Part shown: piece by piece, positions 949-10,182 of the stretch
How positions within the stretch are numbered: the stretch's first letter is position 1
How the letters are laid out: every line of letters starts with the position of its first letter
Assembly (NCBI GenBank): GCA_001790095.1
Contig: MGBH01000001.1
Location: forward strand, 1,050,001-1,082,000
DNA length: 32,000 nucleotides
Direction: 5' to 3'
Origin: Candidatus Saccharimonadota bacterium
Lineage (GTDB): Bacteria; Patescibacteriota; Microgenomatia; UBA1406; GWC2-37-13
Notes under the pieces: model-generated
Seen by the model: the letters and a program-made list of their open reading frames with translations, nothing else
Told to the model about the DNA's origin: nothing
Databases searched by the model: none
Translations under genes and position numbers: made by a program

Positions 949-1392
949 TCATTCCCTCTTCATGTTTTGCAGCGTCTTTATGATGCGAGAAGAGTCGGCC
1001 TTTGTTTTAAGTTCTTTTATACATATACCAATGAGAGCTTTGGGGCTAGTCGCATAGAGATCTTTATTTTTCTCAACGACCGTTTCAACTTCTTTTTTCA
1101 ACTCCTCATCTGTCAGCTCAAGGGGAAGATAGGTAAGGACGATCGCAAGCTGTTTTTGATACTCTGTCACAAGATCGAGTCTTTTGCCCTGTGCAAAAGA
1201 CTGTATTGATTCGTTAAGCTCTTTCTTTATTTTTTGAAGAACAGATATGGCTTCTTCATCGGTCAGTTCGCGCTGGAGTGCTATTTCTTTATTCTTAACC
1301 TGTGATACAATGTATCTGATCGTATCAAGCTTGATTTGGTCTTTTGCTTTTTGAGCAGTTAACTGATCAGCTTGTAATTTTTGTTTTATCAT
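949..1392 (-). CDS. GatB/YqeY domain-containing protein
   Basis: 147 aa. LKxAxKxxDxxxLxTIRxIxSQVKNKEI .. EEAISVLQK .. ELxxYLP fits the YqeY family pattern as I know it. Confidence 0.8.
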   Translation of the reverse strand: MIKQKLQADQLTAQKAKDQIKLDTIRYIVSQVKNKEIALQRELTDEEAISVLQKIKKELNESIQSFAQGKRLDLVTEYQKQLAIVLTYLPLELTDEELKKEVETVVEKNKDLYATSPKALIGICIKELKTKADSSRIIKTLQNMKRE

Positions 1393-1408
1393 TCCATAAT
1401 TATATCCT

Positions 1409-1813
1409 ATGAAAAAAAAGATTCAACGAGACGCACTTGTGCTTCTGGGGATGTTCCAAAAAGATGTTCTGTTGAAAAAACCAGACATTAAGGAAATGAT
1501 AGCTGAGATACACATGATGAGGTTTAGGGTTAAACCGCTTCAGGGAGACCTCTCTGGTATCAATTTTTATAACAGCCTGTTTATAGAGACCTTGTGGAGT
1601 CTGGGTAAGCTTGATGAGTTTTTTCAGGCACAGTATCGGCAGTTAAGCGAAAAAGAGAGGGCGTCTTTTTATAGCTATTTTGATTCATTGCATAAGAAGT
1701 TCCAGGAAGACCTAAACAGGCTCAATTTAAAACAAGAGCGTCGTGAAGGGAAAGCTCCAGTATTGGAGATGGAGATCTACAAAGACAGGCAGAAAAAGAA
1801 AAAACTTAATTAA
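1409..1813 (+). CDS. Hypothetical protein
   Basis: 134-aa ORF, Lys-rich C-terminus, no motif recognised. It is only 16 nt from the divergent YqeY start. Confidence 0.55.
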   Translation: MKKKIQRDALVLLGMFQKDVLLKKPDIKEMIAEIHMMRFRVKPLQGDLSGINFYNSLFIETLWSLGKLDEFFQAQYRQLSEKERASFYSYFDSLHKKFQEDLNRLNLKQERREGKAPVLEMEIYKDRQKKKKLN

Positions 1814-2459: not shown

Positions 2460-3131
2460 ATGGGATACTCAGGTAAACTATTTCTTCATGAAAAAGCGAG
2501 GGAACTTCGACTAAAAGGATACTCAGTCCGCACAATTCAAAAAAAACTTGGTGTAGCAAAATCTTCTGTTTCGCTTTGGGTTCGCAACATTATGTTAAGC
2601 GATAAGCAAACCCAACAGCTCTTAAATAGTAAAAGGGCAGGAGGGAAAAAAGGATCGATCCTTGCTGCAAAAAGAAAAATAATAAATAAGGAAAAGCAGA
2701 TTAAAGAAATAACCCTTAAAGCGAATAAAGAAATTGGGACATTAACACAGAAAGAGAAGTTTTTCTTCGGGCTTGCCCTATATTTTGCAGAAGGCGATAA
2801 AAAAGGTCACAATGTGGCATTTACCAATTCTGACCCAGAAGCTATTAAATTTATGGCAAACTGGTTTAGAGATTTTTGCAAAGTTAAGAGCGATAAAATG
2901 AGGTGTTATATATATTTACACGAGAATTTGGATGAAAAAAACGCAAGGAATTATTGGCTCAAAACAACAAAGATTCCTCTCGATCAGTTTAGAAAAACAT
3001 ATAGAGTTTCAAATACAAAAAAAACATTTCGAAAAACAAAATATATATATGGAATTTGTCGAATTTCAATAAGTGATGTTAATCTATTGAGGCGTATTTT
3101 AGGTTGGATATCCGGAGTCTTTAATGTATAA
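2460..3131 (+). CDS. HTH domain plus LAGLIDADG-like (single-motif) homing-endonuclease-like protein
   Basis: 223 aa. N-terminal helix-turn-helix GYSVRTIQKKLGVAKSSVSLWV. The central GLALYFAEGDKKG..VAFTNSDPEAIKFMANWF resembles a LAGLIDADG motif followed by the usual beta strand and helix. It ends 12 nt before the intron-containing tRNA. Confidence 0.45.
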   Translation: MGYSGKLFLHEKARELRLKGYSVRTIQKKLGVAKSSVSLWVRNIMLSDKQTQQLLNSKRAGGKKGSILAAKRKIINKEKQIKEITLKANKEIGTLTQKEKFFFGLALYFAEGDKKGHNVAFTNSDPEAIKFMANWFRDFCKVKSDKMRCYIYLHENLDEKNARNYWLKTTKIPLDQFRKTYRVSNTKKTFRKTKYIYGICRISISDVNLLRRILGWISGVFNV

Positions 3132-3142
3132 TAATTAACGTT

Positions 3143-3429
3143 TCCCCTGTAGCTCAATTGGTAGAGCAGGTCGCTGTGAAAAGACGCAGCCCTTAGTAGA
3201 AATATTAAGGTGAAAATCGGGCTAATTCGAGGAAGACCTCCGAATCGGAGGTTAATCTCGAGCTAAATTTCGACTAATATCGACTAAACGTGTAGAGACT
3301 ATACACCCGACCCCTCAAGAGTCCTCCGAGTCGGAGGATGAAGTGGGGAAGAAATAGTCCATTCCTTAAAGTAATTTAGGGGTTAATGTAACGACAAGGT
3401 TACTGGTCCGAGTCCAGTCGGGGGAGCCA
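3143..3429 (+). tRNA. tRNA-Asn(GTT) interrupted by a group I intron; CCA encoded
   Basis: Exon 1 is 3143-3177 (TCCCCTG TA GCTC AATTGGTA GAGC A GGTCG CTGT). Exon 2 is 3389-3429 (TAA CGACA AGGTT ACTGG TCCGAGT CCAGT CGGGGGA G CCA). The joined anticodon loop is CU-GUU-AA with discriminator G. The sequence is very close to E. coli tRNA-Asn as I recall it. Confidence 0.85.
3178..3388 (+). ncRNA. Group I (IC3-like) self-splicing intron in the tRNA-Asn anticodon
   Basis: P1: exon GCUGU pairs with GCAGC (3186-3190), giving a U-G wobble at the splice site. The terminal G is at 3388. P2 is CCTTA/TAAGG (3191-3210). P3 is TCGGG (3217-3221) with CCCGA (3306-3310). The core is GTAGAGACT (3292-3300) and ATAGTCCATTCCTTAAAG (3354-3371), like cyanobacterial tRNA-Leu introns. 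No internal ORF. Confidence 0.8.
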
Positions 3430-3433
3430 TAAC

Positions 3434-3452
3434 GTACTTAATATAACCAAAA
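3434..3452 (+). repeat. R-motif copy 1 (GTACTTAATATAACCAAAA), 4 nt after the tRNA-Asn 3' end
   Basis: 18/18 identical to 4474-4491 and 17/18 to 5465-5482. The core TTAATATA.CAAA also occurs at 3998-4016. Inverted copies lie at 5429-5448 and 5874-5893. Confidence 0.85.
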
Positions 3453-3465
3453 TTTATAACGTAAC

Positions 3466-3930
3466 ATGAACTGGAGTTTGATAAGTAATATTATTACTGC
3501 CCTTGGTTTATTTGAAATTATCAAAAGGATTCTATTATATGCAATTGATAATAATCTAATAAAAAGGAATTTGGAAGTAAGAGGTATTGCAGAAAGAGTC
3601 CTAACATGGAGCAGTTGGTTAAAATTAAGAAACTTCGAACGACCCTTACCACCTGCCATTGCCAATCAACTTTATCTTGACATTTTTAAAATAGAAGACG
3701 TAGATAAAGAACTATCACAGGATATCATGCGACTAATTAATTATCCTCAGATGAACTCATTCTTACACAAATCTTTGGACAAACAACCTCAAAACATGGA
3801 CATTATCCAAGACAACTGTGAAAAATGTCATGATATGACCGATAAATTAAATAAGAAATGTAATAAACTGCGCTATCAACCTATTATTGATATTAAAAAA
3901 ATCGTTAAATCACTTAGCTTCAAAACCTAA
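3466..3930 (+). CDS. Hypothetical protein with N-terminal hydrophobic helix (island module A)
   Basis: 154-aa ORF. The ATG is 32 nt after the start of R copy 1. The N-terminus LISNIITALGLF resembles ILTNIITWLLT of the next ORF. Confidence 0.55.
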   Translation: MNWSLISNIITALGLFEIIKRILLYAIDNNLIKRNLEVRGIAERVLTWSSWLKLRNFERPLPPAIANQLYLDIFKIEDVDKELSQDIMRLINYPQMNSFLHKSLDKQPQNMDIIQDNCEKCHDMTDKLNKKCNKLRYQPIIDIKKIVKSLSFKT

Positions 3931-8092: not shown

Positions 8093-8260
8093 AACACTTT
8101 CTAATTGCATGAGCTTGAGGGAGTTTGGAGAATGTTATTATAACCTACTTAATTACAGGATTAAACGGTTCTAAACGGACACGCTTAAACAAGGTGGTCA
8201 TTGTTCTAACGAAATAATTATACTTGTTGTAGATTTCCATTAATGGTAATCTTATAGAAG

Positions 8261-8881
8261 ATGTCTAAAGAATTTTTCATTGCTAGACGACCATCGCACT
8301 TCAGCGTTAATCCTTTAGTAAAAGCGTTTATTCTTTCTGAAATGTTTTTATGGTCTGCGTGGAATTTTGTTATTCCAATTTTTGCAATTTTTGCAACAAA
8401 TGAAATACAGGGTGGCAATGTCAAAATTGCTGCTTCCGCTTATAGTACCTACTTAATTGTTAGGGTTATCACTGAATTAATAGCGGGTAAATATTTATTA
8501 GACAAGAAGGATGCTGAGAAAATAATAGACACAGTTATTGGGACTTTTATCATAGCGGTTTCTTTTATTGGTTTTAGTTTATCCAATACAGTTTTACCAT
8601 TATTTATATTTTTCGGAACGATTGGAATAGGTATGGGGATGAGTGCTCCAGCCAAATATTCTCTTTTTTCTTGTCATTTAGACAAAGGAAAAGAAGCACT
8701 CGAATGGAGTTTTCATGACGCAATAAGTTTTACAGGGATGGCATTATCTGCAACCTTGGGTGGCTTTATTGCCGCTGAATATGGATTTAAGTTATTATTT
8801 TTCTTAGCATCTTTAGTCAACCTTATTGCAATCGTTCCTTATCTTGTATATTTACGACTTAATCATTCAAACGAACATTGA
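8261..8881 (+). CDS. Six-TM half-size MFS-like membrane protein (possibly 5'-truncated transporter)
   Basis: 206 aa with about 6 hydrophobic helices. It looks like the C-terminal half of a 12-TM MFS, and no N-terminal half is present upstream. Confidence 0.45.
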   Translation: MSKEFFIARRPSHFSVNPLVKAFILSEMFLWSAWNFVIPIFAIFATNEIQGGNVKIAASAYSTYLIVRVITELIAGKYLLDKKDAEKIIDTVIGTFIIAVSFIGFSLSNTVLPLFIFFGTIGIGMGMSAPAKYSLFSCHLDKGKEALEWSFHDAISFTGMALSATLGGFIAAEYGFKLLFFLASLVNLIAIVPYLVYLRLNHSNEH

Positions 8882-8959
8882 GACAAATAACACAAAAATG
8901 CTCGCGAAATCTTCCATTCATTAACTTTTATCACTTGAGAATCAGGCTACATTTTTCAA

Positions 8960-9046
8960 CCTATTTTCGTATTTGCTGAACGAGCCTAAAACCTTCAAAT
9001 ATTTTATAATATACGATAGCTTAATAAACAAACCCCCGAGGTTGTT
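8960..9046 (+). repeat. Inter-module repeat U6
   Basis: TTTTCGTATTTGCTGAACGAGCCTAAAACCTTCAAATA (8965-9002) matches U3. Its 3' part CAAACCCCCGAGGTTGT (9029-9045) is the inverted complement (15/17) of ACAACTTCGGGGGTTCG at 7493-7509. Confidence 0.65.
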
Positions 9047-9073
9047 CAAAACATCTTCTTATTGCCTCTGCTT

Positions 9074-9084
9074 GGGGGAGCCAT
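9074..9084 (+). repeat. 11-bp direct repeat of the tRNA-Asn 3' end (GGGGGAGCCAT)
   Basis: Identical to 3420-3430 (acceptor 3' strand, discriminator, CCA and 1 nt). Candidate distal att scar. Confidence 0.6.
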
Positions 9085-9132
9085 CCTCATTCTATGCTGT
9101 CACATAAGCCTACTTCAATAAATATCCCACGG

Positions 9133-9141
9133 TGTTATAAT
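9133..9141 (+). promoter_or_regulatory. Extended -10 (TGTTATAAT), 6 nt before ATG 9148
   Basis: Same geometry as the other leaderless-type starts. It argues for start 9148 rather than 9094. Confidence 0.5.
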
Positions 9142-9147
9142 TACTTC

Positions 9148-9480
9148 ATGAACACAATTACCTATAAAATTGTAGTTGGAGTTCCTGAAAGTCATACGAG
9201 GAAGGTATTGGATGTGCTCGGAAGCGCGGGAGCTGGTAAGATTGGCAACTACTCACACTGTAGTTCAGTAACCAAAACCGTTGGTCACTTTAAACCATTA
9301 TCAGGGGCCCATCCGACAATCGGAGAGATAGGAAAAATTGAAAGCGTGATAGAAGATAGAATTGAAACATGGTGTTATAAAAAAGATCTTAAAAAAATAA
9401 TCCAAGCGATAAAGAGCGTTCATCCTTACGAAGAACCAGTAATTAATGTTTATAAGCTTGAAAAACTACCTGCGACATAA
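9148..9480 (+). CDS. Small NIF3/YqfO C-terminal-like (PII-fold) protein
   Basis: 110 aa from the internal Met. YKIVVGVPESHTRKVLDVLGSAGAGKIGNYSHCS .. HPYEEPVINVYKLE resembles the insert/cap domain of NIF3-family proteins as I recall it. Confidence 0.5.
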   Translation: MNTITYKIVVGVPESHTRKVLDVLGSAGAGKIGNYSHCSSVTKTVGHFKPLSGAHPTIGEIGKIESVIEDRIETWCYKKDLKKIIQAIKSVHPYEEPVINVYKLEKLPAT

Positions 9481-9566
9481 CCATACGCTCCTTATTACTT
9501 CGGTTATGGGGAAGCTAATAGATCACCATTACTTTATTTTCAACTTCAAACAGCGTTCGGTACTCT

Positions 9567-9575
9567 TGATATAAT
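9567..9575 (+). promoter_or_regulatory. Extended -10 (TGATATAAT), 6 nt before ATG 9582
   Basis: Same element as 7583-7591. Confidence 0.55.
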
Positions 9576-9581
9576 CACCAT

Positions 9582-10076
9582 ATGGATATAGACATAAGAG
9601 AATATACAGAAAAAGATTTGTTGTTTGTTAAGTCTTCATTTGAAAACCTTCATGATTATGTAGTTTCAATAGACCCGATAAAAAGGATACGGAAAATGCC
9701 CGGATATCTCGAAGTTTTTTTTGAAAAGTTTGTCAACAATATTAAAAACAACCAAGGCAAAATCTATATCTCTGAATTTGAAGGAAAACCAATAGGCTTT
9801 ATCGGAGGTTTTGTTGCTGATAAACAGTCTACGGAAAATCTGTTAGAGGTTGTTCCGTCTAAACTCGGAATTATCAGCGATATTTATCTTATTCCGGAAT
9901 ATAGGGGTAAAAAGATAGGAGAAAAACTCATGAAACGCATGGAAGAATATCTTATTTCTAATAATTGTGATGCGATATGGGTAGATACAAATAGCTTTAA
10001 TAAACCAGCACTTCGATTATATAAATCAATTGGATTTTCTGAAAGAGAAATTGGGCTCATGAAGAAAATTAAATAA
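9582..10076 (+). CDS. GNAT family N-acetyltransferase (paralog 2)
   Basis: 164 aa with IPEYRGKKIGEKLM and ALRLYKSIGF. Paralog of 7598..8092. Confidence 0.8.
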   Translation: MDIDIREYTEKDLLFVKSSFENLHDYVVSIDPIKRIRKMPGYLEVFFEKFVNNIKNNQGKIYISEFEGKPIGFIGGFVADKQSTENLLEVVPSKLGIISDIYLIPEYRGKKIGEKLMKRMEEYLISNNCDAIWVDTNSFNKPALRLYKSIGFSEREIGLMKKIK

Positions 10077-10182
10077 AACATTACTGGGAAATATAGTGAA
10101 AAACCCCTTAACTATTTAATAAAATTGAATACAGAACTACTCTGATAAAAGTTTTATATTAGTATAATAAAGGTGATAAATA

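Follow-up and report, generated by a model that had tools for sequence, protein, structure and literature searches.

The analysis reported here points to a functional tRNA-Asn(GUU) gene at positions 3143-3429 of the window (the whole 32,000-nucleotide (nt) stretch of DNA that was analyzed), whose anticodon is very probably interrupted between U35 and U36 by a compact, IC3-like group I intron of 211 nt that contains no open reading frame (ORF). A preliminary reading made from the letters alone (hereafter, the sequence-only reading) had proposed that a 76-nt tRNA-Asn results from joining two exons, 3143-3177 and 3389-3429. ARAGORN applied to the spliced sequence agrees, calling tRNA-Asn(gtt); the anticodon loop has 7 nt (CU-GUU-AA), and a U1-A72 pair, G73 and an encoded CCA are present. 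The junction also lies where it had been placed; enumeration of U-1/omega-G junctions gives only Asn(gtt), at position 4, as a class-I tRNA of 76 nt.

The anatomy of the insert, its match to the group I covariance model and the conservation of its helices are matters of direct observation. The Rfam search that had been named as a check on the intron was limited to positions 3050-3520 (471 nt) and returned a match to Intron_gpI (RF00028) at 3166-3381 on the forward strand, spanning the full model (1-253) with 66.4 bits and an E value of 9.1e-17, above the gathering score of 50. The minimum free energy (MFE) is -80.3 kcal/mol against -54.9 ± 4.8 for shuffled sequences (z = -5.35), the MFE fold recovers P1, P2, P4, P5, P6a, P8 and P9, and P7 matches the Rfam consensus AGACUA...AUAGUC (Table 1). 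The intron does end in G, as the sequence-only reading had it, with G3388 followed by U36, and TG/TAA (the slash marking the splice site) is invariant in the alignment described below. The hairpins that had been listed as P2, P5-like and P8-like elements were found, and the pairing of TCGGG with CCCGA in P3 is upheld. The proposed P1, GCUGU with GCAGC, stood in part: four pairs and the U.G wobble hold, but the fifth pair, G31-C3190, is not conserved, because 26 of 34 relatives have C at position 31 and the intron base is always C.

Table 1. Features of the tRNA-Asn(GUU) locus in the window, with duplicated 5' exon segments at three related loci
Feature	Position	Strand	Description
5' exon	3143..3177	+	tRNA nt 1-35: acceptor 5' strand, D arm, anticodon-stem 5' strand, C32 U33 G34 U35
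Group I intron	3178..3388	+	211 nt, no ORF, ends in omega-G 3388
P1	3174-3178 with 3185-3189	+	exon C32-U35 and intron G1 pair with C-GCAG; loop 3179-3184
P1 wobble	U35.G3186	+	marks 5' splice site
P2	3191-3198 / 3203-3210	+	8 bp, GAAA tetraloop 3199-3202
P3	3217-3221 / 3306-3310	+	TCGGG / CCCGA
P4	3227-3232 / 3256-3261	+	encloses P5
P5	3236-3242 / 3246-3252	+	hairpin
P6	3262-3263 / 3290-3291	+	
P6a	3270-3273 / 3280-3283	+	hairpin
P7	3295, 3297-3301 / 3355-3360	+	G-(A bulge)-GACUA within GUAGAGACUA, with UAGUCC; bulged A3296
J8/7	directly 5' of P7 3' strand	+	GAAGAAA
P8	3311-3314 / 3345-3348	+	
P8a	3322-3328 / 3332-3338	+	extra distal hairpin; gapped in most rows of alignment A1
P9	3364-3370 / 3375-3381	+	7 bp, GUAA tetraloop 3371-3374
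3' exon	3389..3429	+	nt 36-76: U36 A37 A38, anticodon-stem 3' strand, variable loop
3' exon, remainder	within 3389..3429	+	T arm, acceptor 3' strand, G73, CCA
Predicted ligated junction	U35-U36	+	GGTCGCTGT joined to TAACGACAAGG; CUGU-UAA
Promoter-like site	3105..3132	+	TGGATA-16-TATAAT; consensus scan, 10/12 matches
Upstream ORF	2460..3131	+	223 amino acids; N-terminal helix-turn-helix (HTH), C-terminal domain with LAGLIDADG-like motif LYFAEGDK
L104 duplicate	337-373 vs 1117-1150		complete to U35 plus first intron base
L118 duplicate	about 277-293 vs 1056-1090	-	
L001 duplicate	record 1935-1890 vs 1634-1601	-	16-nt palindrome in D loop

Conservation across related loci

Related introns were sought by pattern, and their hosts were identified from the spliced products. 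L numbers denote loci from other metagenome-assembled genomes (MAGs), metagenomes and a viral collection, and all locus counts given here are among the matches listed. Scanning metagenomes with the subfamily core pattern GCAGN{20,45}CTAATTCGNGGAAN{40,70}GTAGAGACTA returned at least 119 loci; a broader core pattern lacking the GCAG guide gave 12 matches in the viral collection, and among species-representative genomes a pattern scan picked out one related intron, at locus L001 of a different MAG. At each site U-1/omega-G junctions were enumerated and each spliced product was tested with ARAGORN. An initial enumeration that required five P1 pairs including position 31 yielded 41 loci, and a relaxed version brought this to 96 Asn and 14 Asp. 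Class-I tRNAs in which the split follows the fourth anticodon-loop nucleotide account for 110 of the 139 sites listed, comprising at least 96 sites in tRNA-Asn(GUU), with the window and its four duplicates included, and at least 14 in tRNA-Asp(GUC) (L023, L030, L041, L066, L096, L099, L112, L116, L119, L121, L126 and L136 among the latter). About 90 further metagenomic Asn loci thus classified belong to the same subfamily and share the U35/U36 junction, and at L001 a tRNA-Asn with an intron is called by ARAGORN independently. Both host tRNAs have C32-U33-G34-U35, the target of the guide GCAG, and P1 takes the form CUGU/…GCAG in both.

Projection of the window structure onto 34 distinct Asn pre-tRNA segments (alignment A1) leaves 92.7% of cells paired, compared with 33.9-46.5% when the 3' partners are slid, and 41 pairs changed on both sides; the observed values were reached by none of 500 shuffles. 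The four P1 pairs between C32-U35 and GCAG are invariant (34/34). A fifth P1 pair, formed across the splice site by intron nt 1 and the base 5' of the guide G (a P1-extension), covaries at A1 columns 10/20 (CG 12, GC 11, AU 8, UG 3, unpaired 0). Changes on both sides occur at all eight pairs of P2 and at three of the five pairs of P3, which is 100% paired, and P4 is likewise 100% paired and invariant except for one covarying pair (GC 28, AU 6). Four pairs covary in P5, four of four in both P6a (93% paired) and P8 (96% paired), and seven of seven in P9 (98% paired), and P6 and P7 are invariant, the latter in all 34 segments with 99.5% pairing. The joining-region core is also invariant in A1, and every invariant base is present in the window.

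Conservation extends to the exons. The anticodon stem covaries in A1, the acceptor, anticodon and T stems covary among related loci, and the 5' exon is kept with compensatory stem changes in 37 distinct loci. The tRNA stems in the window are perfect except for a G27.A43 mismatch, and the standard 27-43 pair is also missing in 33 of the 34 relatives. Because covariation spans 34 distinct copies and the same junction recurs in many loci, we favor a conserved ribozyme residing in a functional tRNA gene. The promoter-like site shares bases with the stop codon of the upstream ORF and ends 10 nt 5' of the tRNA start; sites of this kind are no more numerous in the region than in shuffled sequences. 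Most related loci have a box resembling TATAAT, usually as TGnTATAAT, at 10-25 nt 5' of the tRNA.

The P5 hairpin GACCTCCGAATCGGAGGTT (3234-3254) and the distal hairpin of P8, GTCCTCCGAGTCGGAGGAT (3320-3340), are near-copies of each other, and the P8 extension, which is missing from most relatives, may be a duplicated or inserted palindromic element. Neither a duplicated 5' exon nor a second intron core was found when these were searched for in the window.

Splicing and the alternatives weighed

Catalysis by the intron, and its necessity for the cell, are what we infer from these observations. Splicing would follow the standard two-step group I pathway. Once the pre-tRNA is transcribed, possibly from the promoter-like site just upstream, the guide GCAG (3186-3189) would pair with C32-U35 to form P1, in which U35.G3186 would set the 5' splice site. 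Free guanosine held in P7, the guanosine-binding helix, would then attack the 5' splice site after U35, whereupon omega-G3388 would move into the P7 pocket and the 3'-OH of U35 would attack the 3' splice site, joining the exons into mature tRNA-Asn. The exons are probably held together by the anticodon stem, not by P10; by its title, Zaug et al. 1993 (cited in PMC3984707) reports that the anticodon stem aligns the exons for the Anabaena intron. If this were the sole tRNA-Asn gene in the 1.2-Mb genome, all asparagine decoding would depend on the ribozyme.

Several points weigh against this reading. A conserved P10 was rejected, the base facing U36 covarying instead with intron nt 1. Whole-window Rfam scans (1-32000), in gathering and in E-value modes, did not report the intron. 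The tRNA scans covered the window, so a second intact tRNA-Asn elsewhere in the 1.2-Mb genome is possible. Lastly, the tRNA had been described as canonical, which is true of the loop CU-GUU-AA, G73 and CCA but not of the T-loop (3405-3411, TCCGAGT), which reads T54-C55-C56, not T-T-C. It thus carries C55 where U55, the Psi55 site, is near-universal, and this could signal relaxed constraint. T54-Psi55-C56 is a general tRNA feature and is not decisive for Asn identity. The nearest relatives (L063, L095 and L143) carry T55; C55 nonetheless appears to be tolerated, because no fewer than three other lineages share it (L072, L089 and L100), as do further loci.

Among the alternatives, the one that survives best, though we consider it unlikely, is that the intron is real and that its efficient splicing needs a protein helper, such as the adjacent LAGLIDADG-like protein acting as a maturase. 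Some LAGLIDADG proteins, including organellar ones, are splicing maturases (I-AniI and yeast bI3), and in the window, as at about 20 related loci, an ORF of LAGLIDADG-like type sits immediately 5' of the tRNA gene on the same strand. To our knowledge, however, members of the HNH and GIY-YIG families are not known as maturases, and ORFs of these families hold the same position elsewhere. The same intron also occurs without such an ORF at many loci (among them L063, L089 and L100), none was found at the 14 tRNA-Asp loci, one homologous ORF adjoins an intronless tRNA-Asn and two adjoin other tRNAs, and compact IC3 tRNA introns, such as those of Azoarcus and Anabaena, self-splice unaided.

A good deal less probable is that the locus is a decaying, intron-disrupted tRNA pseudogene whose work is done by another tRNA-Asn gene. 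C55, the lack of an ORF in the intron and tRNA scans confined to the window leave room for such decay, but the ribozyme core positions that are invariant in the 34 homologues are all intact, all stems pair, compensatory changes are retained across about 90 loci, the TATAAT promoter-like box is kept and the tRNA stems are perfect save for the one mismatch noted above. Moreover, Lui et al. 2021 (PMC8172020) note that complete genomes of the candidate phyla radiation (CPR), whose tRNAs often contain group I introns, have a complete tRNA complement only if these intron-bearing tRNAs are included. A chance resemblance, in which an AT-rich spacer between tRNA-like halves mimics a group I core, has in its favor only the failure of the whole-window Rfam scans and is refuted by the E value of 9e-17 in the local scan, by the covariation seen in each helix that varies and by the roughly 90 homologous loci.

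The missed Rfam match is an effect of speed filters and not of score: annotation pipelines miss the intron because the speed filters of Infernal drop the match in a 32-kb search. The intron of L144 was likewise missed at E<=1e-3. Standard ARAGORN called no tRNA at 3143-3429, and the candidate offered by its intron mode, a tRNA-His(gtg) with a long variable arm, was rejected for its wrong 3' junction. tRNAscan-SE 2.0 is, by its own statement, not designed to detect group I introns. Introns of this kind within tRNA genes are a systematic blind spot of annotation, and if this were the only copy, the genome would seem in standard annotation to lack tRNA-Asn.

Nuclease-like reading frames beside tRNA-Asn

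The ORF at 2460-3131 ends 11 nt 5' of the tRNA and is recorded as hypothetical protein A2334_06210 of Candidatus Roizmanbacteria bacterium RIFOXYB2_FULL_38_10. It belongs to a family of more than 320 homologues that are annotated only as HTH or hypothetical proteins. The motif (L/M)Y(F/W/A)(A/G)(E/D)GxK is present in 48 of 48 homologues, with the acidic residue kept in every one, and a profile of these 48 members matches I-DmoI by hmmsearch (E 9e-4 over 62 residues), aligning LYFAEGsK to LYVAEGDK; hhalign against an I-DmoI sequence entered by hand gave 50.7% probability and an E value of 1.6e-4. Searches of Pfam and NCBIfam with the ORF found an HTH only and no LAGLIDADG match, and Foldseek returned no LAGLIDADG fold for the AlphaFold2 models, which have predicted local distance difference test (pLDDT) values of 90 and 94. 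We hold with moderate confidence that the ORF encodes a LAGLIDADG-type nuclease, a candidate free-standing homing endonuclease, and its association with the intron suggests a link between the two.

This association recurs in relatives. The homologues that lie directly upstream of the tRNA at about 20 of the intron loci, on the same strand, were found by tblastn at 33-50% identity. At the same upstream position, about 10 loci (including L090, L105, L120, L029, L080 and L088) have HNH ORFs and four (L040, L095, L102 and L001) have GIY-YIG ORFs (Pfam E 1.7e-13). Because LAGLIDADG-like, HNH or GIY-YIG ORFs share this upstream position, three unrelated nuclease families occupy one spot. The wider flanks of intron-bearing tRNA-Asn loci show no conservation between loci. 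The spot is also polymorphic: the syntenic Roizmanbacteria locus L143 has the ORF, as the window does, and the syntenic locus L063 lacks it, and the order RpoD-ORF-tRNA-Asn in L137, L139 and L145 stands against RpoD-tRNA-Asn in L089 and L100. When the search was started from the protein, in a sample of eight homologues of the ORF, six were directly upstream of tRNA-Asn; five adjoin intron-bearing tRNA-Asn genes, with three intron sequence subtypes, one (L142) adjoins an intronless tRNA-Asn, and the remaining two belong to a cluster of tRNA-Val/Leu/Arg genes. Upstream of the 14 tRNA-Asp loci that carry the same intron subfamily, no member of the three ORF families was found.

Nuclease genes can also reside within the intron. 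L001 has a 517-nt intron at the same tRNA-Asn junction with an HNH ORF in the P1 loop (about 1243-1566, reverse strand), 3' of the 5' splice site and ahead of the guide. An ORF-containing form of this intron subfamily thus exists as well. At L087, an HNH ORF ends 15 nt before the core, in what may resemble the arrangement at L001. Full or partial duplicates of the 5' exon lie upstream, beyond the nuclease ORF, at L001, L104 and L118 (Table 1), and these may be scars or intermediates of an ORF moving between the flank and the intron.

Taken together, these arrangements lead us to propose, tentatively and at somewhat less than even odds, that tRNA-Asn(GUU) in the CPR is a hotspot at which three unrelated families of free-standing homing endonucleases cooperate with group I introns that lack ORFs. 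The nuclease would cut tRNA-Asn genes that lack the intron, carriers would be protected by the intron in their anticodon loop, and repair would copy the nuclease gene and the intron together; the ORF-less intron of the window would then have its mobility supplied in trans by the nuclease-like ORF 2460-3131. A simple immunity model has difficulty with L142, where a homologue neighbors an intronless tRNA-Asn, but is not refuted by it. If true, the proposal would help explain the intron richness of CPR tRNAs. The ORF family is a candidate new family of tRNA-gene-specific endonucleases, and the pairings of tRNA-Asn with nuclease-like ORFs may offer a natural series for studying how mobile introns and homing endonucleases are assembled. 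The association with nuclease genes and the annotation blind spot are the main value of this locus, the intron itself being an ordinary example.

The surrounding DNA fits a CPR/Patescibacteria cell rather than a phage in its gene content, which includes YqeY, DivIC-like and T4SS_pilin genes, and a phage database contained no DNA resembling the window. The window matches, at every one of 13,131 compared bases, contig MGBN01000001.1 (1,216,967 bp) of assembly GCA_001790195.1, from the same Candidatus Roizmanbacteria bacterium RIFOXYB2_FULL_38_10, and the tRNA-Asn and intron sequence shows no differences among four independent assemblies. A Joint Genome Institute (JGI) assembly from the same population (L015) lacks about 2 kb of the window at about 8200-10100, comprising an MFS-like gene, a small ORF and one of two GNAT genes, and this difference is a strain-level indel. 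The whole-window Rfam scans, in both modes, reported a single feature, tRNA-Met at 486-556 on the reverse strand; this tRNA-Met(CAT) (485-556) is intronless. In the syntenic relative L063, the orthologous tRNA-Met (2530-2790, reverse strand) is interrupted after C32-U33 by a group I intron (Rfam 61.1 bits), and a divergent LAGLIDADG-like ORF (2888-3526) lies upstream of that intron-bearing gene.

Comparison with catalogued introns and homing systems

The sequence-only reading had taken tRNA-Asn(GUU) to be an unusual host for a bacterial group I intron, a view that is out of date given the Asn.4Ug seed of Williams (bioRxiv 2020, doi 10.1101/2020.01.27.920355) and the roughly 90 loci reported here. 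The preprint describes a scan of 80,413 bacterial assemblies, after which 21 tRNA/intron settings were known in place of 4; it used GenBank assemblies of January 2017 and may have included this Roizmanbacteria genome. Pam37.Asn.4Ug and Wba81.Asp.4Ug are among the seeds in its supplementary seed alignment. The window intron is thus a well-supported new member, by sequence comparison, of a catalogued class, and the class itself is not novel. The resemblance to IC3 cores that the sequence-only reading had pointed out is corroborated by those seeds, in that GUAGAGACUA and AUAGUCC are common to the Leu, Ile2 and other seeds.

In pairwise alignment to seed sequences, as distinct from a match to the gpI_bact_tRNA model, the window intron scores 171.5 with Wba81.Asp.4Ug, 119 with Pam37.Asn.4Ug, 95.5 with a tRNA-Leu seed and 87.5 with the Azoarcus seed. 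Judging from the seed alignment, Asn.4Ug shares with the window the same tRNA, the same insertion after the fourth loop nucleotide, U-1, omega-G and the same kind of ribozyme, yet the Pam37 seed differs in its long P2 region, a P7.1/7.2-like insert and GUGAAUUC in J3/4. Pam37-type introns are found in tRNA-Asn of other CPR lineages (L137, L139 and L145). The seed nearest to the window, Wba81.Asp.4Ug, has CUAAUUCGRGGAA, GUAGAGACUAUA and simple P2, P5, P8 and P9 hairpins; in the seed entry the loop position and the P1 (CUGU/…GCAG) are the same as in the window, whereas the host tRNA and 3' exon are different.

The classical IC3 introns of Azoarcus tRNA-Ile(CAU), cyanobacterial and plastid tRNA-Leu(UAA), tRNA-fMet and Agrobacterium tRNA-Arg(CCU) are likewise about 200 nt long and inserted in the anticodon loop. 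Like the window intron, they have P7 AGACUA/UAGUC with GUAGAGACUA, GNRA loops L2 and L9, and no P5abc. They sit at loop position 3, 2 or 5 of other host tRNAs, in contrast to position 4 in the window, and they differ in J3/4 (AAAUU, against CUAAUU in the window) and in P6 (GCC…GGU, against GC…GU). Pairwise identity of the window intron to the Azoarcus and Leu seeds is about 55%.

Contigs classed as viral also carry introns with the same core pattern in tRNA genes, and the intron mode of ARAGORN calls tRNA-Leu(taa) in L005 (IMG/VR, 467 kb), tRNA-Ser(aga) in L011 and tRNA-Ser(tga) in L013, which lies in a tRNA cluster. According to a 2014 review, every group I intron observed in phages up to that date lay in a protein-coding gene. 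These three contigs may be misclassified CPR DNA instead of viral.

Collaborative homing has been described for F-CphI and psbA of cyanophage S-PM2 and for mobE and I-TevIII of T4 (PMC3984707). The locus in the window resembles these cases in that a nuclease gene adjoins an intron-bearing gene and shows presence/absence polymorphism at that spot. The known cases concern protein-coding genes of phages, whereas here the host is a bacterial chromosomal tRNA gene and the endonuclease is putative; were our proposal to hold, it would extend collaborative homing from phage protein-coding genes to the tRNA genes of bacterial chromosomes.

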